From Promethearchaeota archaeon (GTDB taxonomy: Archaea > Asgardarchaeota > Lokiarchaeia > Sigyniarchaeales > SOKP01): 64,000 nucleotides of DNA. The DNA lies in NCBI GenBank assembly GCA_008080735.1, contig SHMW01000001.1, positions 53,037 through 117,036 on the forward strand, read 5' to 3'. The stretch's first letter is position 1, and the number at the start of each line of letters is the position of its first letter. Made by a program: the position numbers and the translations under genes. Shown one piece after another: positions 11,058 through 24,069 of the stretch. The notes below the pieces were generated by a model. The model saw only the letters and a list, made by a program, of their open reading frames with translations. It was not told where the DNA came from and did no database searches.

Positions 11058-11639
11058 TTAGAATTCCAAAAAACCAGGATCTTCGAATACATCTTCGATT
11101 TCGCGCTCTTTCTTTATGTCACTCTCGTCGTGCTCACTGAATAAGGAATCGTCATCTGTCTGAATCCCGTGTTCAAGTTCTTCGGTTTCTAATTTGAGAA
11201 GAGCATCTTTCTCCAAACGCTTGTATTTTTCCGATCTCATTTTCCATTCATTTACCTCGTCCATATCAACATCATCTTCTTCTAATAATTGGGCCGCTTT
11301 AACCTTACTCAGATCTGCTAATATTGAATAGGCAAATGCTAATTCTCCGAACTCTTCCTTTTGCTTAAGCTTATTAACTCGTCTCTCTAATCTTTGTAGC
11401 TCCTGATCCGCGTAGTATATATCGATAAAATCCCCAAAGGCATCCACTGGTTCTGAGATCGAGTTGATTAAAACCTCTTTCTCAAGTCCACAATGTCCGC
11501 ATTTTACTGTTGCGAAGCCGCCACCTTTTTTAATATCCTTTACCTTTACACTTTTTTCACCGCAGCTGGGGCATGTGAAAATCTTTGGTAATTTCTTAAC
11601 TCTTCTATAGCTCGTTTGCTTTCTTTTACGTCGTCCCAT
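11058..11639 (-). CDS. elf1: Transcription elongation factor Elf1 with long helical/acidic C-terminal extension
   Basis: MGRRKRK...LPKIFTCPSC...CGHC...EPVDAFGDFID is the Elf1 zinc ribbon. Confidence 0.9.
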   Translation of the reverse strand: MGRRKRKQTSYRRVKKLPKIFTCPSCGEKSVKVKDIKKGGGFATVKCGHCGLEKEVLINSISEPVDAFGDFIDIYYADQELQRLERRVNKLKQKEEFGELAFAYSILADLSKVKAAQLLEEDDVDMDEVNEWKMRSEKYKRLEKDALLKLETEELEHGIQTDDDSLFSEHDESDIKKEREIEDVFEDPGFLEF

Positions 11640-11844: not shown

Positions 11845-12951
11845 GTGGATAGTAGGATGGAACATAAAAATTTATCATTAGAGTATGACAGAGACTTAAT
11901 AAATCGAATTCTCGATGATGCAGATATGCGCTATATTATCCTGTTCTTATATACAATTCGCAATGACCTATTTCGAGATTTAACAGATGAGGATCTAATA
12001 GACGCGTATAACCGAGTCTTAATTTTAGATGAGATTTTTAAAGGAAATTTATTAAGTTTCTGGGATGAGGAATTCATCGAAATTGCCATCGATTTAGGCT
12101 TAATTAAGAATATCAGAACAAAAAGAGAGTTTGATCAAAAAGAGCAAGATTTCATTGTTAAACTGGGTGAAGAGACCATCACGATAGAAGGTGATACCAT
12201 CTCAGTACCAGCGGACACGCTTTATCTTATGATTACAAAGAAATTCAAATCCGTCAATCGCCGTAACTACAATCTGGCACTGACGAGATTAAAAAGCGTT
12301 CGTTGTGAAGCTTCGGGTGTAATTCACCCCTTTATATATCAGATCGGAGAAAATGATTATACGATCTCAGATGATTTATATTATATTCTAGACCAATTTG
12401 GAAACATATATCAGACGATTAAAATAGAAAATACTGTAGAGGGCTTTGCCGATCGATTTATAGAAATTTATGATAAGCTTGTGGAACTGATTGAACTATA
12501 TGATACTGGACTTACAAATAAAAAAGCAACTGAAAAAGCGAACAAAGCAATCGAGCAAGGGAAAGATATTATACAATTTCTTAAAGACGAGAATATCTCA
12601 TTATCAGATAAATTCAAGTTTGACAAAGTTGATAAGAGTGAATCAATTTTTAAAGATTGGCATTCACGATTGATCCAGCTCTTAAATTTCCGTTATAAAA
12701 TGAATAATATCGAGACACAAATAAAGGAGATTAAACAATATTATTCTGGCAAGGATAAAAAATTTAATTACTTGGAATTCATCGAAATGGTCTCGTTCAA
12801 CGAGGAGGGGATTGTAGATAAAATTAGAAATGATCTGATAACCCTAAGGGAACAAATTATCGATATAAATGATATTATTTCGAAATTAACAAAAAAGCAG
12901 ATAAAGCTTTTGAATTTGGATTTTGAACGATTTTTAATTGAGCAAGAATAA
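11845..12951 (+). CDS. Hypothetical protein, possible winged-helix plus helical bundle (operon gene 1)
   Basis: NYNLALTRL...PFIYQIGENDYTIS looks like a wHTH recognition helix and wing, followed by coiled-coil helices. Start is probably ATG 11857. Confidence 0.5.
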   Translation: MDSRMEHKNLSLEYDRDLINRILDDADMRYIILFLYTIRNDLFRDLTDEDLIDAYNRVLILDEIFKGNLLSFWDEEFIEIAIDLGLIKNIRTKREFDQKEQDFIVKLGEETITIEGDTISVPADTLYLMITKKFKSVNRRNYNLALTRLKSVRCEASGVIHPFIYQIGENDYTISDDLYYILDQFGNIYQTIKIENTVEGFADRFIEIYDKLVELIELYDTGLTNKKATEKANKAIEQGKDIIQFLKDENISLSDKFKFDKVDKSESIFKDWHSRLIQLLNFRYKMNNIETQIKEIKQYYSGKDKKFNYLEFIEMVSFNEEGIVDKIRNDLITLREQIIDINDIISKLTKKQIKLLNLDFERFLIEQE

Positions 12952-12953
12952 AG

Positions 12954-13940
12954 GTGAGTGTATATAAAATGATATGTCCTGTATGCGAAATAGAAATGGA
13001 AACTTTGGTGGAGGGTATTTTCCAATGTCCGAAATGTCGAAAAATCATAAAACAAAAAACGGAAGAAGAGCAAGAAGAGGAAAAGAAGATTGGAAAGGGT
13101 GAACTTCAAGAGGGAGAATACTTCCACCGAAATGCAAGTATTAATAGACAATATGAAATATGCGAAAGTGGAATTACTGTAAATAAAACTGAAAACAGAT
13201 GGTTTGCGGTGCTAATTTGCCATAGTGCATATCTTGAAAGTGAACGATATGTTCGACTTTCATGGTGGAAAAAATCATTTTATCGGCATGCAGGGATGAT
13301 GAAGATATATGAAGAAGATGTCATGAAAAATTTGATAGCTGCTTTAGAAAAAATTGATAAAAAATTCGATGATTTCTGGACCTTCAAAGGAAAATTTAGA
13401 GAAAACAAAACTCTCACAGAAGAGGATAAAATTCGAGAAAAAAAATTAGATCTTATCAAATATAGGATAATCGAAAATCGAACGTGTCCGAAATGTGGGA
13501 AGAAAATGGATAAGGAAAAATCGCACTATGAATGTCCACATTGTGGAGAAATAGTCATTCTGGAGGGTTATAACCAACCCGTGTTTAATATCGCCCCAAC
13601 AGATCTCAAATTAAATTTTCAAGCAAGCTTTCCTATAAACTTTTATCTTCCCGTTGCAGGTATAACTATAAAATGGTTGATGGGTGAGTGGAAAAGCTTG
13701 GTAGTTATTTATTCAAAAGAAAACCCCAATAAGAAATGGCTTCGGTTTTATTGGTGGATACGAGATTTAAAAAATGTATTAAAATATGGGAAGCGTGAGA
13801 TTGGAGAAAGTTCTAAATTAGGTTGGAAAGCCAAAAAAGGAGCTGGTACTACTAATCTTTACAATAAAGATATAATAAGGCCTCTAATCGACGCATTAAA
13901 AAAAATATCTAAAGAAATGAATTGGAATATTGAAGAGTAG
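12954..13940 (+). CDS. Tandem (Zn-ribbon + PC4/Whirly-like beta-sheet) protein (operon gene 2)
   Basis: Two CxxC..CxxC ribbons (CPVC/CPKC; CPKC/CPHC), each followed by a homologous module (WFAVLI..YVRLSWW / WKSLVVI..WLRFYWW, then ..LI.AL.KI). Start is probably ATG 12969. Confidence 0.55.
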   Translation: MSVYKMICPVCEIEMETLVEGIFQCPKCRKIIKQKTEEEQEEEKKIGKGELQEGEYFHRNASINRQYEICESGITVNKTENRWFAVLICHSAYLESERYVRLSWWKKSFYRHAGMMKIYEEDVMKNLIAALEKIDKKFDDFWTFKGKFRENKTLTEEDKIREKKLDLIKYRIIENRTCPKCGKKMDKEKSHYECPHCGEIVILEGYNQPVFNIAPTDLKLNFQASFPINFYLPVAGITIKWLMGEWKSLVVIYSKENPNKKWLRFYWWIRDLKNVLKYGKREIGESSKLGWKAKKGAGTTNLYNKDIIRPLIDALKKISKEMNWNIEE

Positions 13941-13954
13941 AAAGGAGATAATAT

Positions 13955-15094
13955 ATGTCTGAACAACAAGATCCCACTTGGAATGATTTACTAAACTCAT
14001 TTATCGGGGGAGTGGATAAGGCAATTCAACATCTAGAAGAAAGAGATATTGAACGAATACCTGGTGCTAGAGAAGCTCTATTACGGCGTCTAAATGATAT
14101 GAAAACCCACTTTCCGAAAAATAATGGAGATATTTTTATAAAAGCCATAAATGATAAGATTCAAAACTCCTTTTTTCCTAACACTCGCGATTTTTCTGAT
14201 GCTTTTCAAAAGATTCTCCAATCACGTACACACGAACAAGACTATATTATAAATGAATTAATTAATGGATTTGTCACTTCTCGTGCCAAAGGAATCGCTT
14301 CTGGGACTCAAATACCTGTAATTGACAGATTGGTGGAAGCATTTTCAACGCGCAATGATTTTCATATAGTTGATCATCAATTTTACGCATTATTTGGTGA
14401 TCCAAACAAACCACGGAAATATGTAAAGGATCAATTAGAGGAGCTGGTAAATCTATTCGGGTTGGTCTCGAAAGAATTAGTCGTGGAGAAAGATGTGAGG
14501 AAAAGCGAGAAAAAAATCTATACCTTTTATACATTTCCCGATGAGATATTGACGATTTTAGAAGAAAAATATATCGTCATTGACGAGGAACTAGGGTATG
14601 CGTATGTGAGTGAGGAATTTGATCGAAACGTGTTTATATGCATGTTTTTAGCCAATATTTCTGTCAATTGGGATAATTTAGAAAAAATTGGTGGAGAATA
14701 TACGGTAAATGGAATTTGCGCCATCTTTGCTTTAATTCTTTTATTAAGCTTTATGCCTAAGGTTTCTGTAAGTGAGGATAACCCAATCCTTCGAGATCCA
14801 ACCTATAATGAGGAAAATATGAGCGTTATTCCGAAATCGTGGATGATGAAACAAGTTTTAGATCCATTATTCGAACCTCTTATAAAAGTGGTTGCATATA
14901 GAATAGGTGGAGGTCTTTGGCTTTCCAGTGTTATTGATTCAGAAGTGAATAAAAAAATTCATAATCAAATAAGATTTTTGATAAAGGATGTGAATAGATG
15001 GATCCTCGGAGAGTTAGTTCGTGTGGAAGTACCCATATTTGTTGAGATTTCCAATATATTCCAAGAAATCATGGTGGGTACTGAAAGAGAATAA
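13955..15094 (+). CDS. Hypothetical protein (operon gene 3), possible internal wHTH
   Basis: GGAG RBS; YVKDQLEELVNLFGLVSKE...YTFYTF resembles a wHTH helix and wing. Confidence 0.5.
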   Translation: MSEQQDPTWNDLLNSFIGGVDKAIQHLEERDIERIPGAREALLRRLNDMKTHFPKNNGDIFIKAINDKIQNSFFPNTRDFSDAFQKILQSRTHEQDYIINELINGFVTSRAKGIASGTQIPVIDRLVEAFSTRNDFHIVDHQFYALFGDPNKPRKYVKDQLEELVNLFGLVSKELVVEKDVRKSEKKIYTFYTFPDEILTILEEKYIVIDEELGYAYVSEEFDRNVFICMFLANISVNWDNLEKIGGEYTVNGICAIFALILLLSFMPKVSVSEDNPILRDPTYNEENMSVIPKSWMMKQVLDPLFEPLIKVVAYRIGGGLWLSSVIDSEVNKKIHNQIRFLIKDVNRWILGELVRVEVPIFVEISNIFQEIMVGTERE

Positions 15095-15140
15095 AGAACT
15101 GAATTTAAAATATTTTTAATCAAATAGGTGTAATTAAAAC

Positions 15141-16406
15141 GTGGTCAGAGAAAAATGGACAGACATATTGCCTAGATATCAGACATTTATTAGTCACATG
15201 AAGCCTATCCTTAGAGAAACGCGCAGAATTATAGAAGGATTAGATCCCGACCTTCTCTATGATACAGAAGTATTAGATAAAATTAGGCAAGAGGAAGAAA
15301 AAAGAAATGTTCGTAAAGTTCGCGCACTGACAGAATTTTCTGCGATGTATCGTTCTAATGTATACGAAATCATGAAAGATTTTATTATTAAATATAGAGA
15401 TCGCATCCCTCTAATAGATATTAAGGATTATATTATAGATTTTCTTCAAGAATCCGTAAAGGCATTAACCATATTACGAAATATCACAAATCCCGATGAA
15501 AGAAATTTAGAAAATACATACCTTTATCGCTTAGTAAAATATCTAGAAGGAATTCTATTTCCACGCAGAGGAAGTATTAAAGAGATTTATGAAGCTCTAT
15601 TAGAATATGTGCCAGATTTCTATGAATCCCAGAGACATATTCTCATGACACATACTTATTACCGAGAGGATTTGGAACATCCGGATTTCTTTACCATCCC
15701 GGGCATCTCTCCGAAAGTCTATCAAATTATAAATAATGTCACCTCTTTCTTCAACTTAGATCCAAGCTATGGTGCGTTTCCAGAACGACAAAATCAAGAA
15801 ATTCCAATGATATTGATAAAAGATGTATTTTTACCTTATATTGATTCTATTGCAAATGCCGAAGAAGAAGCAATTAACAATATCGGGGAGAGAATCGGTT
15901 TAAGGGTTATAGATGGTATATTTCTAGCCCCTAAAGAAGAGACTATTGATTTGTTTATGGATAATAATTATTTTCGCAAAAACAAACAATCGGACGGGAC
16001 GATGCGATATGTCCCACAATTTAGTAATGAGACCCTAATTTTATATTATTTAGCATTCGCGTCAAGAAGAAGGGGATTTTTATCTAAAGAACTTATAAAT
16101 TGGATCGCAATGAATTTTGCGTTTTTGGTATATATGGGAATATTAAAATGGAAGCTTACAGATGAAAATATATTTTATTCAATATTTAAAGATCTTCAAA
16201 CAAATGAAAAAGTATTGCCCTACTTAATGAAGTTGATTTGCTTTCCTAATTATCTGGGATTGGATAAAACCAAGATTAGAGACAGTCCCCAATATAGGAA
16301 GGAGATATTTAATTTTATAGGCGCTCAGATTGATAATTTAGAGCAACTGATTGAAAATATTGGAGAATATTGTGAGAAAATTGAAAAGGAAGGAAATAAT
16401 AAATAA
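15141..16406 (+). CDS. Hypothetical protein (operon gene 4)
   Basis: 421-aa ORF with AGGTG RBS; no recognised family. Confidence 0.55.
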   Translation: MVREKWTDILPRYQTFISHMKPILRETRRIIEGLDPDLLYDTEVLDKIRQEEEKRNVRKVRALTEFSAMYRSNVYEIMKDFIIKYRDRIPLIDIKDYIIDFLQESVKALTILRNITNPDERNLENTYLYRLVKYLEGILFPRRGSIKEIYEALLEYVPDFYESQRHILMTHTYYREDLEHPDFFTIPGISPKVYQIINNVTSFFNLDPSYGAFPERQNQEIPMILIKDVFLPYIDSIANAEEEAINNIGERIGLRVIDGIFLAPKEETIDLFMDNNYFRKNKQSDGTMRYVPQFSNETLILYYLAFASRRRGFLSKELINWIAMNFAFLVYMGILKWKLTDENIFYSIFKDLQTNEKVLPYLMKLICFPNYLGLDKTKIRDSPQYRKEIFNFIGAQIDNLEQLIENIGEYCEKIEKEGNNK

Positions 16407-16427
16407 AATATAAAAAAGGTAAAAAAA

Positions 16428-17498
16428 ATGTATACTGATGAAGAAATAAGAGAACGCCTGAGCAAATATGGTGCAGTGTATTTGCCCGAAGATATCAAAG
16501 AAGATATTGATGATATAAAAGGTAATGAAGATAAGAAGGATCGATTAGATGATTTTTTTAAGGGTTTGAAAAAGTATGAAGATATTTCAGAACAACTAAA
16601 AAAAACAAAACTCTCTCCCAGTTTAACTTTACTTCTATTTGGCCCCCCTGGGACGGGAAAAACCTCTCTTACTCGGGCTTATGCCAAGCAATATGAAATA
16701 GCGATGTGTGTTGTTGAGTCAGATAGATTAGTCTCCCCTTTATTAGGCGATACGATAAAAAATATAAGAAATGTGGTGGAATTAGCTGCAGATATTGCAA
16801 AAGAGAATGGTGCCTTTTTATTATTTTTTGATGAAATTGATGCTATAGGTTCCGAAAGATCAAATATACATGAAGTTGGAGAGATTAAACGAGCAGTTAT
16901 CTCATTTTTACAAGTGATTGACAAGGTAAATTATGAAGGAACACCACTGGCTATTTTTGGAGCAACCAATCATCAACATCAATTAGATTCTGCAATTTGG
17001 AGGCGTTTTACCTTTCATCTGAAATTTGATTTTCCAAATTACGAATTAAGAAAAGAAATAATTGAATCTTATCTGGATAAAATAAAAAATGCTAATATTG
17101 GTGTTGATGACACCATATATAAAAGACTTGATCAAGAATATGTAAAAATAAGAGAAATTCATACGAACCTTGAGGGCAAATTGGGAAGGGAAATAAGTGA
17201 ATTTGAAGATAATCTTCTCTGGAATGAAATAGAAAAAAAAAAAGATGTTCAAGGGTTCCTCAAACTAACAATTGGTTATTCGGGATCAGATATTGAAAGA
17301 GGGACCAGAGTTGCCCTTTTCAAAGTTATTCAAACAGGGGTACTGACATATGATATTTTTTATGATTCTTTGAAATTGGTAGGTGGAACAGCGGTACATG
17401 TAGAAAGACAAGATATCTTAAGTCATTCAAAGCAAAGGAAAGGAAAAGAAAAATATACTTCAAGTCGACCCCCTACCTCAGGACCACCTGAAATATAA
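16428..17498 (+). CDS. AAA+ ATPase, single classic-clade domain (operon gene 5)
   Basis: Walker A GPPGTGKT, Walker B LFFDEID, EVGEIKRAV, SRH GATNH...LDSAIWRRF, GYSGSDIE. Confidence 0.92.
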   Translation: MYTDEEIRERLSKYGAVYLPEDIKEDIDDIKGNEDKKDRLDDFFKGLKKYEDISEQLKKTKLSPSLTLLLFGPPGTGKTSLTRAYAKQYEIAMCVVESDRLVSPLLGDTIKNIRNVVELAADIAKENGAFLLFFDEIDAIGSERSNIHEVGEIKRAVISFLQVIDKVNYEGTPLAIFGATNHQHQLDSAIWRRFTFHLKFDFPNYELRKEIIESYLDKIKNANIGVDDTIYKRLDQEYVKIREIHTNLEGKLGREISEFEDNLLWNEIEKKKDVQGFLKLTIGYSGSDIERGTRVALFKVIQTGVLTYDIFYDSLKLVGGTAVHVERQDILSHSKQRKGKEKYTSSRPPTSGPPEI

Positions 17499-17511
17499 AT
17501 AATCACTTGAG

Positions 17512-18567
17512 ATGATCCAATTGGAGCAAAAAACATTTGATCTAAACTTTTTGCAAAATTTTTTTACACCCATAGATAATTTAGAGGGAAAATTAAATCG
17601 ACTGGATTCAAAATTTTCCAAATATAATGAACTAAATGATAAACTAGATAATCAACTAAATCAAGAGCTTCTTTCTGTCCAATTAAAAAATCTTTATGAG
17701 ATAATAAATTCAATAAACGAAAATATAGTACAAATCAACCAAAAAAACCTCGAAACATTTCTCAACTTTCAAGATATATTGGTTTCCAAATATAAACAAC
17801 TCAATATAGATCGTCTTAAGCAATTAGATATTAATCAAGAAGATATGAAACAAGTAGGATTATCTCTTATTGGAAAGAAAAAGACTGCGAAGATTATATA
17901 TAAAGCCTCATTTACACCTTCCATTGAAATAGATGATTGGATGGATTTGTTGGATTATCTTAGAAATAATTCATTATTCATCTCAATAATTGATGATGTT
18001 GAAAGTTATTATGAAAAGATACTTGAAAGAAAATTAGCAGAAGAAATTTCAAAAATCCCCGATGATTTTGACAATAATCTGATAGAGGATTATAAGATCG
18101 CCTTCTGGAAAAATTCTGATTTAACATTCGAAAAATATATCCGAAACATTCAGCAGGAGCAAATTAAACGAGAAATCGAAAAAAAAGGCGAATCAATCCA
18201 AGAGGCGAAGAAAAAGGACGAGTTAGAAGAATTAAAAAAAAACCAAGAAGAACAAAGAAAATTATACGAGGATTATCTAAAATATTCAGATAGAGAATTT
18301 GAACGTAGAAGAAGAAAAGAAAAAAGAGAAAAACTATCTGAAATTGCTCAAAAGCCGAAAAAACAAGATGGAATTAGTGAAGATGTTGAGGAGAAAATAA
18401 AAAAGTTTAAATCTAAATTCGAAAATTCTTTCGAAGATAAATATTTAATTCAAAAAGATGATACTACGGATCCCAGAAATATCGTAAGAAATCGAAAGAA
18501 AAAAAAGGAAGAAGAATATCAAAAATATCTTAAAAAATTTAAGGATAATTCAAATAATAAGGATTAA
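17512..18567 (+). CDS. Coiled-coil, highly charged hypothetical protein (operon gene 6)
   Basis: N- and C-terminal heptad-rich segments and K/E/R tracts. Confidence 0.55.
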   Translation: MIQLEQKTFDLNFLQNFFTPIDNLEGKLNRLDSKFSKYNELNDKLDNQLNQELLSVQLKNLYEIINSINENIVQINQKNLETFLNFQDILVSKYKQLNIDRLKQLDINQEDMKQVGLSLIGKKKTAKIIYKASFTPSIEIDDWMDLLDYLRNNSLFISIIDDVESYYEKILERKLAEEISKIPDDFDNNLIEDYKIAFWKNSDLTFEKYIRNIQQEQIKREIEKKGESIQEAKKKDELEELKKNQEEQRKLYEDYLKYSDREFERRRRKEKREKLSEIAQKPKKQDGISEDVEEKIKKFKSKFENSFEDKYLIQKDDTTDPRNIVRNRKKKKEEEYQKYLKKFKDNSNNKD

Positions 18568-18579
18568 GAATAGTCAATT

Positions 18580-20154
18580 ATGGAGATACAAATCAATAAC
18601 CAAAAAATTCCACTTAAAGAAAGACTCAACCTAATTCTGGGAGATTTTCAAGGAGAAGAATTGAATGTTAATTTTAATGAAAAATATTTCAAATACACAC
18701 AGTTTGAAGATTTTACCATAATTCCATTTAAAAAATTTTTAAAATATATTAAGTATATTGATCCCTCAAAAGTAGAATTTGATAATCTAAATTTACTTAT
18801 TCAATATCTAAACAAATTTGAAGAGGTTTCAGGTCTTAATATCTCAATCATTAACAATTATTTACAAATTCTTGATTTACTTTTTGCTGTCATTGACTTT
18901 AATTTAACTTTGTCAAAAAAAAGAAAACTAAAAAAAGAATTGGAATTTTCTCAACTAAAAGAAAAGTCCAGTACATTATCTGCCAAAACTAACCTTTTAA
19001 ATAATTTAAATGAACAAATTAAAAAGAATCGACAAGATTTAAAATATTTAGAGGAAGATTTTTTCCAGATAAATAGTAAAAAGGAGCAATTAGAAGAAAG
19101 AATAAAAAAGTTAGAAAAAACAATAAGAAAGTTAAATCAACAAAGAAAAGCAAAATTTCAGGAAGTTAATAAAATAACGCGATCTATGGAGGAACCACAA
19201 AAAAAAACTAAGATCCCTCCTGTCGCTGGACTATCTAATGCGGAAAGAATTCAAAAATTAAGAAAAGAAGCAAAAGAGATTCATTACAAAATCAGAAAAT
19301 ATAAATCAGAATTAGAAAACGCAAAAAAAACCTTAGATTCGTTTCTACCCAAATATCAGTCTTATAAAAAAGATTTTGATTCTTTAAAATCAACCATTGA
19401 TAGACAAGAGAATCAAATTAAACAACAGAAGGCTGAAATCGAAGAGTTAACCCGAAAGTCTGATATAAAAAATCTTTCTGAAATAAAAATTGGTGATTTG
19501 AGCAATATTAGAGATTATGATACAGTTAAACAAGAAATTAGTAATACAGATAATAAAATTGATATGATGATAGAAAAAAATGAATATTTCAAAGAAAAAG
19601 AAATACAGAATTTTGACAAATTAGAACATAGACTTATCGAATTTAAAGCTTTTCTCTTGGAACAAAATGATGATTTGATTTATGAAATAAATATAAACAC
19701 AGTTAATTCTTTAGTTGATAATCTACGAGAATTTGAGCTATATTTAAAAGATGTTGAAGATCTTATGAATAGAATGATTGGACAAATCAATCTTGAGCTA
19801 AGCTTTGAAACTATTATCAATTTTGATGATAAAGAATTCTTTATTAAACCTAAATTTACTAGAAATGAAAAAGAAACTTTAGAATTTAACCAACTTACCA
19901 CCCCTGAAAAGGTCTTTGTAGTTATAACTCTCTTCATCACAATCAATATCTCATTGGATGAAAGGGAAGTTCTTTTCTCAAATCTCTATCTTAATGAAAA
20001 TTTTAACAAAAGAGGTTCTCTCTTTCGAACTCTTAGGAAAATTATACCTATATTTCAACAAAATAAGAATTTTAGCGATATAGAATTAAATTTTGCTATA
20101 TCAAATTTAGAAATGAAGCGTCCAATCGAAAATATTAATATTATAAAACTTTAA
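18580..20154 (+). CDS. SMC/Rad50-like coiled-coil protein with degenerate ABC-ATPase head (operon gene 7)
   Basis: N-terminal IPLKERLNLILGD (pre-Walker A strands, GKS/T absent), long central coiled coil, and C-terminal FNQLTTPEKVFVVITLFI (LSGGEK-like signature) followed by VLFSNL in place of Walker B DE. Confidence 0.55.
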   Translation: MEIQINNQKIPLKERLNLILGDFQGEELNVNFNEKYFKYTQFEDFTIIPFKKFLKYIKYIDPSKVEFDNLNLLIQYLNKFEEVSGLNISIINNYLQILDLLFAVIDFNLTLSKKRKLKKELEFSQLKEKSSTLSAKTNLLNNLNEQIKKNRQDLKYLEEDFFQINSKKEQLEERIKKLEKTIRKLNQQRKAKFQEVNKITRSMEEPQKKTKIPPVAGLSNAERIQKLRKEAKEIHYKIRKYKSELENAKKTLDSFLPKYQSYKKDFDSLKSTIDRQENQIKQQKAEIEELTRKSDIKNLSEIKIGDLSNIRDYDTVKQEISNTDNKIDMMIEKNEYFKEKEIQNFDKLEHRLIEFKAFLLEQNDDLIYEININTVNSLVDNLREFELYLKDVEDLMNRMIGQINLELSFETIINFDDKEFFIKPKFTRNEKETLEFNQLTTPEKVFVVITLFITINISLDEREVLFSNLYLNENFNKRGSLFRTLRKIIPIFQQNKNFSDIELNFAISNLEMKRPIENINIIKL

Positions 20155-20170
20155 AAGAGGAAAAAACAAT

Positions 20171-20674
20171 ATGTCAGAACAAACCTTTGAAGATACTGTT
20201 AGAAAGATTTCAAAGATGATCTTAATAAATGAACACAAGATGGTGCGGGAAGAGGATTTAATCCAACTCTGTCCAGAATCAATAAATTTTGATCAAGTTA
20301 TTAACCATACATATCAAAATCTAATAGAAATGGGATTTGAATTAATAACCAGTACTTTTTTAGATCAAAAGTATTATATCTTAACCTCCGATGGTAAGGA
20401 TGATAATATAACCCCTACCCAATATGGTATCCTCGCCATTTTTCTAGCTCTCAGCAAGGAAGTAGATGAAAATCTGAAATACTCAGATATGAAAAATATT
20501 TTTTCTGAGGTCTGGGATAATGTGGAACCATTAATTGAAAAGGATTTCATAAGGAAGATTTCCATCAGAAGTACAGAAATTCTTAAAATGACACCGTTAG
20601 GGAAAGCATCACTCAAGAATGTCATTCAAAACATTAAATTGAAAAACCTCCTTGACGTATTTAAAAAAGAATAA
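20171..20674 (+). CDS. Tandem winged-helix protein, MAGE/Nse3/Nse1 (kite)-like (operon gene 8)
   Basis: FDQVINHTYQNLIEMGFELI...YYILTS...PTQYGILAIFLAL pattern matches kite WH-A/WH-B; ends with the wing motif MTPLGK. Confidence 0.6.
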   Translation: MSEQTFEDTVRKISKMILINEHKMVREEDLIQLCPESINFDQVINHTYQNLIEMGFELITSTFLDQKYYILTSDGKDDNITPTQYGILAIFLALSKEVDENLKYSDMKNIFSEVWDNVEPLIEKDFIRKISIRSTEILKMTPLGKASLKNVIQNIKLKNLLDVFKKE

Positions 20675-21924: not shown

Positions 21925-22860
21925 TTAGGCAAAATATCGAAACTTATGGCGGAAAAGGATATATGAGGCAACAAGTCCTCCCAGATCTGGCAGATACCAC
22001 GCAAGAACAATAGGATCTAAAACGATTAAGTAGGATATAAGTCCTGGTACTAATCTAAATAGAATTAACAACAATAGAATTATTTTACCTTTCATTCTTA
22101 TCGGAATAAACATTAAAAGAAATGTCATCTCCCGATCGAAGCTGAAATAGATTATAAAGGAAATTACTCCTAATAATCCACCAAATGCTAAACCAATCGG
22201 TAAAATAATTCCTCCAGAACTTGCTAAGTCTAAAGGTAACCATATTGCGACATAAATTAATCCAGTAATGAAGGTGGAAAATAAATACAAGGTTATTAAA
22301 AATTTTGATCCAAACCGCAACTCAATAATTTTAATAATATTATAGAAAAGTAAAATTATAATAAATAAGAAGAAAATCCCAAATAGGCCCTCTGAATAGT
22401 TAAAGAAAGGAGCTGTGAAAAATGTCCAGATATATAGATTGAAGAAACTTAAGCGACTTAATCCTACATAATCTGCAAATACAACAATATCTTCTAGTTG
22501 AATCGATCCTACAATAGATATAATAAAGATAGCGATAATGAGATAAAGGGTAATTGAGGTGCCTCCAAAACCCATTGAAGAGCTTTCAAACATTTTTCTT
22601 GCTCTCTTTCTCTGCTTTTCTTGCTTTCGCAAAAATTTCTTAGCCTTTTTCGACTCTTCTCCTGATGAGACAAAACGATATCTTTCTCGCTCTCGCTTTT
22701 CACCTCTCCGAGATGTTGGGACAGATGGGGTATGCTTTCTTTCAAATGTACATTCATGATTTTCTGGTAAACGATGGTCTTTACAGTATTGGTTACCACA
22801 ATATTTGCACCGAAATGGCAAATACCCAATCTCTTTTCCGCAGAATTCGCAATATGGCAT
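21925..22860 (-). CDS. AN1-type zinc finger fused to rhomboid-family membrane domain lacking catalytic residues
   Basis: CEFC..PFRCKYC..YC..HRLPENHEC (AN1). Rhomboid scaffold WTFFTAPF, IE.RFG..FL..LYL, but GxSG is GLAFG and AHLGG is PDLGG. Confidence 0.75.
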   Translation of the reverse strand: MPYCEFCGKEIGYLPFRCKYCGNQYCKDHRLPENHECTFERKHTPSVPTSRRGEKRERERYRFVSSGEESKKAKKFLRKQEKQRKRARKMFESSSMGFGGTSITLYLIIAIFIISIVGSIQLEDIVVFADYVGLSRLSFFNLYIWTFFTAPFFNYSEGLFGIFFLFIIILLFYNIIKIIELRFGSKFLITLYLFSTFITGLIYVAIWLPLDLASSGGIILPIGLAFGGLLGVISFIIYFSFDREMTFLLMFIPIRMKGKIILLLLILFRLVPGLISYLIVLDPIVLAWYLPDLGGLVASYILFRHKFRYFA

Positions 22861-23025
22861 TTTTTACTCGAACCTTTTATTCTTTTCTAATCTAGTTTTG
22901 TTATCCGACTTAAAACTAATGCAATCTAGGATAATTAGGTACTAAAAAGTAGTATCATTCATATTTTTTTTTACTTTAGTTGGTAAGTAAAAAGTTATGT
23001 ATCCATATGATTAATGAATTCATTC

Positions 23026-24069
23026 TTACAATACATTATAATAAGGATTCACATTTGAAGGTGCATAAATACAGATATAATTGATAACAATTAAAACAAG
23101 CATCGAAATTACGAGAAAGAAATACACCTTTTTATTCCACTTAAAAATATTTTCTCCATCTAATATACCCACAGGGATAAGATTAAAGAGTCCCAGCATG
23201 AAATTTAAAGAGGCAGAAATTCCGATAAATAAATTGATAGGATAAATTGGCACTAGAAAAGATGCCATAAATAAAATAGTCCCATAGATTAAATTAATGG
23301 TAGGTCCCGCAGCTTTGCATAAACCCGTCGTTCGGTCAACTTTATCCAAACCGAGTACGACCACTGCCCCTGGTAATGCTAATGCGGGCAATGAAGGTGA
23401 TTGTGTGAGTAAAGAGATAACACCCATTGCTAAACCGAATAAGGTTATTATCATTCCAAACTTAAGTAGACGGAATTTTGTTTGGAGTCCAAAATGAATT
23501 GCTACTTGTCGATGCCCAAACTCATGAAATAGAAATGCTGTGGTGTAAAATCCTGCCACCATAAATATAACCCAACCATACCCCATCGCATTTAATATTT
23601 CCTGATTATCCGGGTTATAAAATCCAAGAAGGCCAATAAGAAAGATTAAAATCGCCCCAATAAGTAGATGCAAGAATTCGGATTTATAGGGCAAGAGAAT
23701 TCCTTTAAATTCAATACCAGAGTCGGGATCAAAGGCGTTTTCTGGAATGTTTGTTTCTCTTCTATACCATGTAAAACTTCCGTCTGTAGTACCTCGTCTT
23801 TCCCCGTTGTCTACATATGTTTCTCGGGTGTAGGGAGATTGATCCTGTAGATTTTGTGGCGCTAGGTTATAATTCAAAGCGGATTGTTCTTGAACCCCAG
23901 CAGGTTGGTACCCATATTGATTTGAAGTTTCTTGTAGATGCTGTGATTCTAGAACAAGATTACATTCATGATCAATTGGATCTTTATGAAGATGACAATA
24001 CTTTTGCTTACATTTTTCACATTGAAATAGTTGATCATACTCCTCACCACAATGATAACATTTAGACAT
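23026..24069 (-). CDS. AN1-type zinc finger fused to site-2 (M50) intramembrane metalloprotease
   Basis: CYHC..CEKC..YC..H...HEC, HEFGH, AAGP..N, FNLIP.G.LDG. Confidence 0.88.
   Translation of the reverse strand: MSKCYHCGEEYDQLFQCEKCKQKYCHLHKDPIDHECNLVLESQHLQETSNQYGYQPAGVQEQSALNYNLAPQNLQDQSPYTRETYVDNGERRGTTDGSFTWYRRETNIPENAFDPDSGIEFKGILLPYKSEFLHLLIGAILIFLIGLLGFYNPDNQEILNAMGYGWVIFMVAGFYTTAFLFHEFGHRQVAIHFGLQTKFRLLKFGMIITLFGLAMGVISLLTQSPSLPALALPGAVVVLGLDKVDRTTGLCKAAGPTINLIYGTILFMASFLVPIYPINLFIGISASLNFMLGLFNLIPVGILDGENIFKWNKKVYFFLVISMLVLIVINYICIYAPSNVNPYYNVL

Follow-up and report, generated by a model that had tools for sequence, protein, structure and literature searches.

The operon at 11845 to 20674 of the window (by which we mean the whole stretch of 64,000 nucleotides that was analysed) is, with moderate probability, a derived member of a third SMC-kleisin-kite system, restricted to Lokiarchaeales and furnished with an AAA+ accessory module. 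It comprises eight ORFs, g1 to g8, all on the + strand, which are genuine genes and no chance set. Their coordinates, and a PF05129 match (7.6e-19) in the neighbouring gene, confirm the layout given in the initial annotation, namely co-oriented ORFs with gaps of 2-46 nt (2, 14, 46, 21, 13, 12 and 16 nt, in order from g1 to g8) that run divergently from Elf1. The Elf1-like zinc-ribbon gene (11058..11639, - strand, 193 aa) and g1 have a common intergenic region of 205 nt. When aligned with their relatives, g1 and g2 appear to begin at later ATGs, at 11857 and 12969 respectively.

The eight genes and both flanks are found in the same order in 12 loci of f1 and three of f2, two families within Lokiarchaeales (Promethearchaeota), with protein identities of 27-91% across the loci compared. 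With gene order conserved in this way, and with an ABC-type head in g7 and a kite fold in g8 (see below), all three features on which the initial annotation had made its reading depend were found. The Asgard host that it had supposed is likewise supported. Each gene is single-copy and present in most f1 and f2 genomes: g7 occurs in 22 of 24 f1 genomes, g4 in 62 of 68 f1 and six of seven f2 genomes, and the g3 profile finds matches in 118 of 134 f1 and 13 of 14 f2 genomes, together with two weak matches in f32 and none in approximately 250 other genomes of the phylum. The Elf1-like gene is adjacent and divergent in 11 of the 14 loci that have the g1 end in view (9 f1, 2 f2), and the neighbours of the operon are Elf1, LSm and other housekeeping genes. 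Rates of evolution vary within the operon, with g6 and g7 evolving very fast (27-49% identity within the family) and g3-g5 mostly retaining 70-90% identity.

The initial annotation took g7 (18580..20154, +) to be an SMC/Rad50-like coiled coil with a degenerate split head, and predicted fold, structural matches and profile alignment all support this. The 524-aa protein is a mini-SMC whose AF2 model (pLDDT 86) has a bipartite ABC-type head, to which residues 1-61 and 404-524 contribute, and a coiled coil with two antiparallel arms of about 140 residues each and a disordered apex loop (205-219); neither hinge nor zinc hook is present in the model and sequence, nor is there any cysteine. Its ATPase motifs are replaced, Walker A by GDFQGEEL, the signature motif by LTTPEK, Walker B by VLFSN and the H-loop by AISN, and across g7 relatives the P-loop position reads GxFxxxxL, with the G alone conserved. 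The top 44 Foldseek matches of the model are all Rad50, SMC, Smc5/6, MukB, JetC or LmuB, and VIA aligned 223 residues with the Smc5/6 head 8hqs_B (Z 11.7, rmsd 5.0). The NCBIfam model for archaea-specific SMC-related proteins (ASRPs) matched the coiled coil only (E 0.005).

The same accessory genes also stand beside an SMC of full length. In four further, very divergent loci (L028, L038, L040 and L041, with g3 and g4 identities of 22-27%), which we call F-type, the g1/g3/g4/g5 module adjoins a gene for an SMC of 1053-1087 aa with GRNGSGKS, SSGQK and IDEFD motifs and a hinge-like centre. The g1 profile matches the first gene of F-type operons (E 8.6e-21, 5e-12) and the g8 profile the last (3.8e-21, 4e-14); a g8-type kite is the final gene in L028, L040 and L041, and the contig of L038 ends before the kite position. 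These operons also hold a wHTH protein and a weakly Nse4-like protein, the Nse4_C match of which (E 0.0014) lies below the Pfam cut-off. When g7 is aligned with the F-type SMC (hhalign probability 90.6%, E 1.3e-6), its residues 304-524 correspond to residues 830-1056 of the SMC, with LTTPEK placed under HSSGQK and IIFSN under IDEFD. The C-terminal head of g7 is homologous to that of an active SMC, with the catalytic residues replaced, and the model suggests that the N-terminal half of the head resembles SMC heads at the level of the fold but not of the sequence.

An inactive SMC next to an AAA motor had been thought to fit no known system. The statement needs qualifying: the same accessory module lies beside an active, full-length SMC in the F-type relatives, and a preprint (10.1101/2024.01.07.573240) on SMC5/6-related SMC-kleisin-kite sets of TACK and Asgard archaea describes, for some Asgard archaea, a third such set whose kite is related to Nse3. 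That kite may belong to the g8 family.

F-type loci also bear on whether g1-g5 and g6-g8 work together at all or are unrelated modules, neighbours by descent alone. In one genome (G016), an 8-kb insertion of unrelated genes, encoding a C5 DNA methylase, a PAPS-reductase-like protein and an HhH-GPD glycosylase, separates g1-g5 from g6-g8 and parts the Elf1-like gene from the operon, a second Elf1-like copy, and with it a second Elf1-type promoter region, lying ahead of g6. Moreover, the metagenomic contig L039 carries g3/g4-like pairs with neither an AAA nor an SMC gene. Consequently, the two modules can be uncoupled, and their sharply different evolutionary rates would agree with separate histories. 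Nevertheless, the accessory genes directly adjoin the SMC gene in all four F-type loci, and the gaps across the g5/g6/g7 junctions in the window are 12-21 nt, and we regard independence of the two modules as very improbable.

The last gene, g8 (20171..20674, +), encodes a 167-aa tandem winged-helix protein (kite) closest to Nse3/MAGE, and the MAGE/Nse3-like fold initially proposed for it is agreed upon by AF2 (pLDDT 88), Foldseek (Nse3 7dg2_C at 2e-5, and also MAGE-G1, archaeal ScpB, Nse1 and JetB) and VIA (Z 11.4 and rmsd 4.8 against 7dg2_C, over 162 of 167 residues). The kleisin-like part, in contrast, had been assigned to g1, for which we find no evidence of such a role; complex prediction points instead to g6 (17512..18567, +), a helical protein of 351 aa with a long basic/acidic tail. 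Predicted together, g7, g8 and residues 1-275 of g6 reach an ipSAE of 0.77, the best control reaching 0.31, and separate runs gave 0.67, 0.77 and 0.78, with partner pLDDT of at least 68 and runs that share at least 40% of their contacts. Of 80 solved complexes, 58 reached the mark used, as did two of 110 mismatched pairs; this calibration is only rough here because each chain entered as one copy and with custom alignments. Residues 6-95 of g6 are predicted to lie on the neck helices of g7 (76-112 and 342-383) and residues ~98-132 on g8, contacts that would resemble those of solved SMC-kleisin-kite complexes; since such complexes have already been solved, the result denotes likeness and may reflect structures already known to the predictor. 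Sequence and profile searches revealed no similarity of g6 to known kleisins, and a C-terminal winged helix of g6 on the SMC cap is not predicted in the complex model.

Among the accessory genes, g1 (11845..12951, +; 368 aa, or probably 364 aa from the later ATG) belongs to no known family and has no match in Pfam, NCBIfam, PADLOC or PDB; its identity is 43-68% in f1 and 30-32% in f2. The internal duplication attributed to g2 (12954..13940, +) is evident from a BLASTP match between its halves (4e-10 over 153 columns), each consisting of a CPxC...CPxC zinc ribbon (Pfam matches at residues 7-41 and 175-203), with cysteines invariant in alignment A7, and, after it, a ~120-aa module in which an R(L/F)(S/Y)WW motif is conserved. 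The products of g3 (13955..15094, +; 379 aa) and g4 (15141..16406, +; 421 aa) are highly conserved, come from no known family and, judged by profile alignment, are paralogues (hhalign probability 68%, E 4.6e-5, 206 columns). Identity of g3 within f1 is 74-80%, with outliers at 65% (L017) and 62% (L029), and g4 is matched by only 42 representative clusters among 1.84 billion proteins. Each has a hydrophobic helix; the one in g3 (254-272) is strongly hydrophobic (Kyte-Doolittle 2.29 at 254) and could be a membrane anchor. An anchor of this kind is not accounted for by the DNA-clamp picture developed below.

The remaining accessory gene, g5 (16428..17498, +), encodes a single-domain, classical-clade AAA+ ATPase. 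Its description as an unfoldase-type enzyme holds, given matches to PF00004 (8e-25), to IetA in PADLOC (7e-57) and to p97/VCP/Cdc48, the nearest solved relatives (5e-34), and given intact motifs: Walker A GPPGTGKT at 72, pore loop LLG at 105, Walker B FFDEID at 133, sensor-1 ATN at 179 and arginine fingers WRRF at 191. These ATPase motifs are invariant in alignment A12, F-type copies included, and the C-terminal GPPEI tail is conserved. The match to NCBIfam IteA (8.5e-51) scores 173 bits, far short of the 510 that the model requires.

A segregase-like ATPase raises the question of whether the operon acts on DNA. A dead SMC might instead be the scaffold, and a MAGE-like kite the adaptor, with which a Cdc48-like segregase remodels or extracts proteins, possibly at a membrane through g3/g4. 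The p97/VCP/Cdc48 relatives of g5 and the hydrophobic helices of g3 and g4 agree with this, as does the absence from g7 of every ATPase motif and of the hinge, which is a DNA-binding and dimerisation site of SMC proteins; furthermore, MAGE proteins are among the best matches over the whole length of g8, and in animals they work with ubiquitin ligases outside SMC complexes. However, the ancestral-looking F-type operons keep a motif-intact, hinge-bearing SMC beside the same accessory genes, and this complete SMC points to a DNA-related origin. The long basic tail of g6 and the two zinc ribbons of g2, of a type common in nucleic-acid-binding proteins, also argue against a complex remote from DNA, and the one hydrophobic helix may be no more than a buried segment of a protein of 380 aa. 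We consider this explanation improbable.

Comparison with known systems places the operon nearest to SMC complexes, although it departs from each of them. It shares with Smc5/6-Nse1-Nse3-Nse4 a coiled-coil protein with an SMC-type head, a putative kleisin-like protein at the neck and a kite of two winged helices with Nse3 as its best structural match, and the full-length relatives add the weak Nse4_C match and a second wHTH protein. In contrast to Smc5/6, g7 has 524 aa rather than ~1100 aa and lacks hinge, Walker A, signature and Walker B residues, a single kite gene stands in place of two, and a classical AAA+ ATPase and four more conserved genes share the operon. Wadjet (JetABCD) and MukBEF follow the same operon logic of kleisin, kite and SMC, and JetC, JetB and MukB chains are among the structural matches of g7 and g8, but here the order is kleisin-like, SMC, kite, the SMC ATPase is inactive with much shorter arms, and the operon lies on the chromosome and is not patchy but near-universal in the family. 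Lamassu LmuB is a short SMC-like protein (500-630 aa) without a canonical hinge, as is g7, and LmuB 9hqu_A appears among the Foldseek matches (7.3e-5); LmuB, however, has retained its ABC ATPase activity and acts together with the effector LmuA, whereas g7 has a kite for partner and no effector in its operon. ASRPs (ClsN, Sph1/2) are likewise small members of the SMC superfamily, found in archaea, that lack a canonical hinge, but they keep Walker A and B and mostly have a zinc hook (PMC9389158), features absent from the cysteine-free g7.

Such matches to JetC, LmuB and JetB suggest an alternative, anti-plasmid or anti-virus defence of the Wadjet, Lamassu or Smc5/6-restriction kind, in which foreign DNA would be clamped by an SMC-like sensor while an IetA-like ATPase of the AAA+ class passes on the signal or activates an effector. 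The best match of g5 is indeed IetA, and IetAS is reportedly a defence system (Gao et al. 2020), yet g5 lacks the ~90-aa N-terminal region of IetA (the match begins at profile position 94), scores a third of the NCBIfam equivalog cut-off and has no IetS subtilase beside it. JetD, the Toprim nuclease of Wadjet, is also missing, and domain searches of all eight proteins brought up no effector domain, be it nuclease, protease, TIR, Sir2 or another. A patchy distribution is usual for defence systems, whereas this operon occupies the same place beside Elf1/LSm, near-universal and single-copy, across two families, with a GC content similar to that of its surroundings. On the other hand, the divergence of g6 and g7 far outpaces that of the adjacent genes, the in-operon insertion of G016 brings a methylase, a PAPS-reductase-like and a glycosylase gene, and genomes of one and the same genus may have either the mini or the full-length type, no genome having both. 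This alternation resembles variable defence cassettes, and a conflict-driven system would fit it at least as well as a housekeeping one. On balance, we consider defence rather unlikely.

Under the SMC-kleisin-kite reading, the system would always be accompanied by its AAA+ accessory module, made up of g1, the double zinc-ribbon protein g2, the g3/g4 pair and the Cdc48/IetA-like g5, and g7 would be an SMC that is without its hinge, has arms of roughly half the length and has lost all residues for ATP binding and hydrolysis. The N-terminal helices of g6 would bundle with the neck of g7 and the next segment grip the kite g8, so that the three may make up a clamp or bridge that is passive, with no cycling of its own, and that probably sits on DNA, possibly as a ring or dimer. 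A g5 hexamer could provide the energy in trans: by tugging at a flexible stretch, most obviously the charged tail of g6 with its great length, it might bring about loading, opening or stripping of the clamp, and g3/g4, g1 and g2 may act as adaptors or as binders of substrate, including nucleic acid. Since its relatives keep a full-size, active SMC, the operon looks like an SMC complex whose energy supply has been handed to another enzyme. The same genome also encodes another SMC, with a hinge, in addition to a canonical SMC-ScpA-ScpB set, and the g1-g8 operon is therefore an extra system, the role of which we infer to be housekeeping, in chromosome organisation or repair, rather than defence.

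We find that the arrangement reported in the initial annotation holds: eight forward-strand ORFs (g1 to g8) lie at 11845-20674, separated by intergenic gaps of only 2, 14, 46, 21, 13, 12 and 16 nt, with an Elf1 zinc-ribbon gene (PF05129, 7.6e-19) upstream on the opposite strand. Judged from alignments, translation of g1 and g2 probably begins at the ATG codons at 11857 and 12969, respectively. The Elf1-like gene (11058-11639, reverse strand) encodes 193 aa, of which only residues 2-76 form the Elf1 zinc-ribbon domain, and the C-terminal 115 residues have no assigned family. Downstream of the operon lie genes for an LSm protein, a HypB/CobW-type GTPase and two adjacent AN1-finger membrane proteases (21925-24069, reverse strand), each of the latter pair with an AN1 zinc finger at its start and the second with an M50 peptidase motif; the pair is kept as a neighbour of the operon across the host's own family (f1, Lokiarchaeales). 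The source names of close homologues identify the host genome as Promethearchaeota/Lokiarchaeota. The GC content of the operon (26-34%) is the same as that of its surroundings, and an origin in a mobile element or provirus was rejected in view of the conserved housekeeping genes on either side and the unremarkable composition. Of the compared loci, 14 include the g1 end, and 11 of these (nine in f1, two in the sister family, f2) show the Elf1-like gene and g1 as a divergent pair; in the genome G016 an insertion separates the two.

The protein encoded by g7 has an SMC-superfamily fold that lacks every catalytic and apex-dimerisation feature of that family, since its motifs are replaced and it possesses neither a hinge nor a CxxC hook. 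Its AlphaFold2 model (built on 16 orthologues, mean pLDDT 86) begins with three strands and two short helices (residues 1-61, a much reduced N-terminal lobe), followed by a helix (62-204), a loop (205-219), a returning helix with three breaks (220-403) and a C-terminal alpha/beta domain (404-524). As is typical of the superfamily, the two termini together form a bipartite ABC-type head (seen in the model and in fold searches, and for the C-terminal half also by hhalign), and the long helices (62-204 and 220-403) pair in the model as an intramolecular antiparallel coiled coil, which matches SMC arm crystal structures (5xg2, Z 12.1). The top 44 Foldseek matches in the PDB are all to Rad50, SMC, Smc5/6, MukB, JetC, LmuB or cohesin (best 7zr1_C, 4.7e-8). 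When the whole of g7 is compared by VIA-align, the top of the ranking is dominated by unrelated coiled coils (PI3K p85 iSH2, chemoreceptors), and the informative matches are those spanning residues 1-524, such as the Smc5/6 head 8hqs_B (Z 11.7, rmsd 5.0 Å, 223 residues). Library searches match g7 to SMC, JetC and LmuB profiles only via the coiled coil, and when alignments of g7, g8, g4, g3, g2 and g1 were searched as profiles against the PDB, only coiled-coil or zinc-ribbon noise resulted.

At the Walker A position the expected GxxGxGK[ST] is absent from g7, which reads GDFQGEEL (16-orthologue consensus GxFxxxxL, with no Lys or Ser/Thr); the LSGG-type signature is absent, LTTPEK lying under the HSSGQK of active relatives, as is the hhhhDE of Walker B, where (I/V)LFSN (VLFSN in the window) lies under IDEFD, and the H-loop position reads AISN. 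Copies of g7 in f2 differ again at the signature and Walker B positions. At the apex, a 15-residue low-confidence (disordered) loop (205-219), with zero cysteines, occupies the place of a hinge or CxxC zinc hook. ASRPs keep their Walker motifs and zinc hook (PMC9389158), and membership of g7 among ASRP/ClsN proteins was therefore rejected, both features being absent.

Operons with a full-length, active SMC (F-type, as distinct from the M-type operon with a mini-SMC found in the window) were reached via distant g4 homologues in an exhaustive profile search, which placed g4 in only 42 clusters among 1.84 billion representative proteins. The four F-type loci derive from a Promethearchaeota MAG (L038), a contig labelled Helarchaeota (L040), a soil metagenome contig (L041) and the complete f2 genome G032 (L028, G032:C1:1133000-1152000). 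In L028 and L040, genes resembling g1, g3, g4 and the AAA gene g5 are followed by an SMC gene (1053-1087 aa), then by genes for two proteins of about 300 aa each, the first of them a wHTH protein, and lastly by a g8-type kite gene. This closing gene is matched by the g8 profile in L040 (3.8e-21) and L041 (4e-14); the latter locus shows the same order from g3 on, its first ORF matching no g1 profile, and the L038 contig stops within the wHTH gene, before the kite position. L028, L038 and L040 each have a g2-like gene close by on the opposite strand, and the second protein of about 300 aa in G032 matches Nse4_C weakly (E 0.0014, below the Pfam cut-off). The F-type SMCs have intact GRNGSGKS, SSGQK and IDEFD motifs and a hinge-like centre. 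In a profile-profile alignment, the C-terminal half of g7 matches the active F-type SMC (hhalign probability 90.6%, E 1.3e-6, 208 columns; g7 304-524 against SMC 830-1056), and the degenerate g7 motifs fall exactly under the catalytic ones. On the strength of this match and of the aligned motifs, we read g7 as an apparent descendant or sister of the F-type SMC, shortened and inactivated. Each searched genome contains one type only, F- and M-type never occurring together, and strong F-type matches exist in G032, in G326 (G326:C66) and probably in G324, members of genera (GTDB g14 and g21) whose other members carry the M-type. Complete genomes represent both types, G325 and G038 the M-type and G032 the F-type. 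The F-type operon of G032 is situated near the same LSm and AN1 genes, in inverted orientation. Replacement, differential loss or binning errors may explain this alternation.

The g8 protein is modelled as two consecutive winged-helix domains in a kite arrangement (AF2 pLDDT 88), and by this model it is a kite closest to the Nse3/MAGE type. Foldseek ranks Nse3 first (7dg2_C, 2e-5), then MAGE-G1, archaeal ScpB, Nse1 and MAGE-A3, with JetB lower, and VIA-align superposes 162 of 167 residues on the same Nse3 structure (Z 11.4, rmsd 4.8 Å), followed by MAGE, Nse1, JetB and ScpB; this Nse3 match lies about 3 Z units above single-domain MarR-type matches (approximately Z 8 over some 78 residues). 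As expected of a kite, g8 is encoded beside the SMC-like gene, directly 3' of g7 in the 13 M-type loci of the comparison in which the two genes were detected, and its profile finds no paralogue in the host genome. Vps22 and Vps25 of ESCRT-II are tandem winged helices as well, yet an ESCRT-II identity for g8 was dropped given that their matches come behind those to Nse3, MAGE and ScpB (E 2.7e-3 against 2e-5) and that the neighbouring gene is SMC-like.

The initial interpretation of the locus was largely right, with the exception of the kleisin, for which a layout of this kind had been seen in g1; complex prediction points to g6. We selected g6 as the partner because it lies next to g7 and its evolutionary rate co-varies with that of g7, and predicted one copy of g7 together with g8 and g6 residues 1-275, leaving out the g6 tail (276-351). 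This set scores 0.77 (runs of 0.67, 0.77 and 0.78), against 0.31 for the best control, the runs agreeing in at least 40% of contacts with a partner pLDDT of at least 68; with g7 replaced, the score is 0.31, just below the mark. In calibration, 58 of 80 solved complexes and 2 of 110 mismatched pairs attained the mark, counts that apply only roughly here, given the use of our own alignments and of three chains. Residues 6-95 of g6 are predicted to contact the g7 neck helices (76-112 and 342-383, expected errors near 1 Å), touching head strands 410-423, and would thereby bundle with the neck as a kleisin N-terminal domain does, while residues 98-132 or thereabouts touch g8 in the model, only the whole-partner score being calibrated. 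For residues 133-275 no confident contact was reported and no cap-binding winged helix was seen in this prediction of one g7 copy and a tail-less g6. In the predicted topology, g6 sits on the SMC neck in the manner of a kleisin N-terminal domain and holds the kite on its following segment, and, because SMC-kleisin complexes have already been solved, the result shows likeness to these rather than proof of binding. At the sequence level, g6 has no Pfam, NCBIfam or PADLOC match, to known kleisins (ScpA, Rad21/Rec8, Nse4, MukF, JetA) or otherwise, and hhalign comparisons with the F-type Nse4_C-like protein (E 0.21) and wHTH protein (E 0.58) are not significant, nor are those of g8 and g1 with the F-type wHTH protein. 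We consequently describe g6 as a predicted kleisin-like subunit, homology to a known kleisin not being supported by hhalign.

Among the eight proteins, g5 is the only one to which library searches assign a family; g1, g3, g4, g6 and g8 gave zero matches. It is a classical-clade AAA+ ATPase of the Cdc48/FtsH/Vps4 type (PF00004, 8e-25), with p97/VCP/Cdc48 as its nearest solved relatives (5e-34), and its Walker A (GPPGTGKT), Walker B (FFDEID), sensor-1 (GATNH) and arginine-finger (WRRF) motifs are invariant in 13 M- and F-type sequences, all of which keep both arginine fingers. The pore loop, LLG(D/E), has no aromatic residue. When M- and F-type copies are aligned, the lid region of the M-type shows a specific coiled insert, some 50 aa long, which F-type copies lack, and g5 ends in all M-type copies with a conserved GPPEI/KPREI tail (17480-17498 in the window) that may be a docking motif. 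Elsewhere in the accessory module (g1-g5), g3 and g4 are paralogues (hhalign probability 68%, E 4.6e-5, 206 columns), each with a hydrophobic helix (Kyte-Doolittle 2.29 in g3), and g2 has two zinc ribbons, its halves matching each other (BLASTP 4e-10). Searches of the ESM Atlas with g4 and g2 returned only their own Promethearchaeota clusters. A further observation concerns translation starts: in many relatives, the conserved N-termini of g5 (L014, L015, L017), g7 (L014-L023), g1 and g2 begin at ATT, ATA or ATC, with no ATG, GTG or TTG between the upstream stop and the conserved N-terminal residues (for g5, ITYTDEEIK in relatives against MYTDEEIR in the window), suggesting that these archaea initiate at non-canonical codons or rely on translational coupling.

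The best reading of these data, and one that we consider moderately probable, is that g6, g7 and g8 form a passive SMC-kleisin-kite clamp, probably on DNA, and that a hexamer of g5 powers its opening, loading or removal in trans, with g3/g4, g1 and g2 acting as adaptors; the long charged tail of g6 would be a plausible handle. This reading builds on the observed folds, motif loss, homology and linkage and on the predicted subunit contacts, from which we infer DNA binding, stoichiometry, the target of the AAA+ ATPase and the cellular role. It is quite improbable, in our estimation, that the complex instead serves as a scaffold or segregase acting on something other than DNA, and we think it very improbable that the locus consists of two modules that are merely adjacent.

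The distribution of the operon bears on a further alternative. With g7 as query, one copy each was found in 22 of 24 other f1 genomes; g4 is present in 62 of 68 f1 and 6 of 7 f2 genomes but was not found in the roughly 230 further genomes searched across the phylum; and the g3 profile, distant members included, matches 118 of 134 f1 and 13 of 14 f2 genomes and gives two weak matches in a further family (f32), with no match elsewhere. The order of all eight genes and both flanks is the same in 12 f1 and 3 f2 loci, G016 being the exception. Given these counts and the kept gene order, the operon belongs to the core of one Asgard order, in which it is nearly universal and single-copy rather than a patchy island. 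Identities are mostly 70-90% in f1 and approximately 45-55% in f2 for g3, g4 and g5, 47-67% for g8 and 43-72% for g1/g2; g6 and g7 reach only 27-55% within f1 and are almost undetectable in f2, where genes of their size and architecture stand at matching positions. The fast evolution of g6 and g7, the alternation of F- and M-types and the likeness of g5 to the defence ATPase IetA, its closest library family (PADLOC profiles 7e-57 to 1e-28; NCBIfam IteA 173 bits against a cut-off of 510, the match omitting the first 96 profile positions), would all suit a defence role like that of Wadjet or Lamassu, yet we regard such a role as unlikely in view of the universality of the operon, its fixed chromosomal position and the fact that no effector was found. 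Unlike in IetAS, the subtilase-like protease IetS is absent, neither the eight proteins nor the flanking genes matching peptidase S8 or IetS. Compared with Wadjet (JetABCD), no JetA, JetB or JetD profile matches within the operon, and JetC profiles match only the g7 coiled coil (2e-5 or weaker), g7 being without the ATPase motifs of active JetC.

Two variant loci were also observed. In G016, approximately 8 kb of unrelated genes (L029 10700-18800, G016:C7) is inserted between g5 and g6. The insert encodes an unknown protein of 644 aa, a protein resembling PAPS reductase with a 4Fe-4S motif, an HhH-GPD glycosylase and a C5 cytosine DNA methylase, and a second Elf1-like gene, divergently oriented, faces g6. 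The operon of G016 hence contains a DNA-modification island, which also repeats the Elf1-type divergent promoter arrangement. On a JGI metagenome contig (L039 50-6629, GC 26.6%), g3-like genes (359 and 347 aa) and enlarged g4-like genes (711 and 706 aa) form two pairs in succession, and neither an AAA nor an SMC gene lies in the vicinity; the g3/g4 pair thus exists also as a free-standing, duplicated unit.

The host genome also encodes a canonical SMC with ScpA and ScpB, Mre11-Rad50, and a second hinge-bearing SMC of 1153 aa (G000:C7:34463-40393; L035 4463-10393), preceded by a 421-aa ORF and followed by ORFs of 219 and 174 aa, none of which has a Pfam match. Two SMC-kleisin-kite sets have been described in TACK and Asgard archaea, including a cultured Lokiarchaeon, along with a third SMC set with an Nse3-related kite in some Hodarchaeales, in the parts of a preprint available to us (10.1101/2024.01.07.573240). 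By position, the 219-aa and 174-aa ORFs are probably the Nse4-related kleisin and Nse1/3-related kite that this preprint describes for the cultured Lokiarchaeon; g8 does not match the 174-aa or 219-aa ORF significantly (hhalign E 0.074 and 0.36). The term 'AAA' has zero occurrences in the main text of the preprint, and we found no mention of a motif-dead SMC in the available parts.

A bolder proposal, which we consider doubtful, is that the M-type complex is a fully ATP-independent SMC-kleisin-kite clamp with a Cdc48-like AAA+ unfoldase dedicated to its loading or removal in trans. The F-type operon would in that case be the closest prokaryotic counterpart of the whole Smc5/6 holocomplex: besides its SMC, wHTH protein and AAA+ ATPase, it would supply an Nse4-like kleisin and an Nse3-like kite, and the paralogous g3/g4 pair would take the part of Nse5/Nse6.

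To our knowledge, all SMC complexes studied to date are powered by an ABC ATPase of their own. The passive clamp that we favour would be a natural, conserved complex in which the SMC subunit has no motor or hinge, the kleisin-like and kite partners are kept, and a separate, intact AAA+ ATPase is tied to the assembly, offering a direct route to ask which SMC functions need an ATPase cycle and which need the clamp architecture alone. As motif-intact and motif-dead versions occur in close relatives, apparently at the same chromosomal place, comparative experiments are possible. Five of the eight proteins (g1, g2, g3, g4 and g6) have no known family, and two of these, g3 and g4, invite structure determination, since few genes of the locus are as well conserved. 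Furthermore, because its kite is closest to Nse3/MAGE and its host is an Asgard archaeon, the system bears on the origin of Smc5/6 and of its non-SMC subunits, and, should the holocomplex reading prove true, it would provide a testable archaeal model for the origin of SMC accessory and loader subunits.
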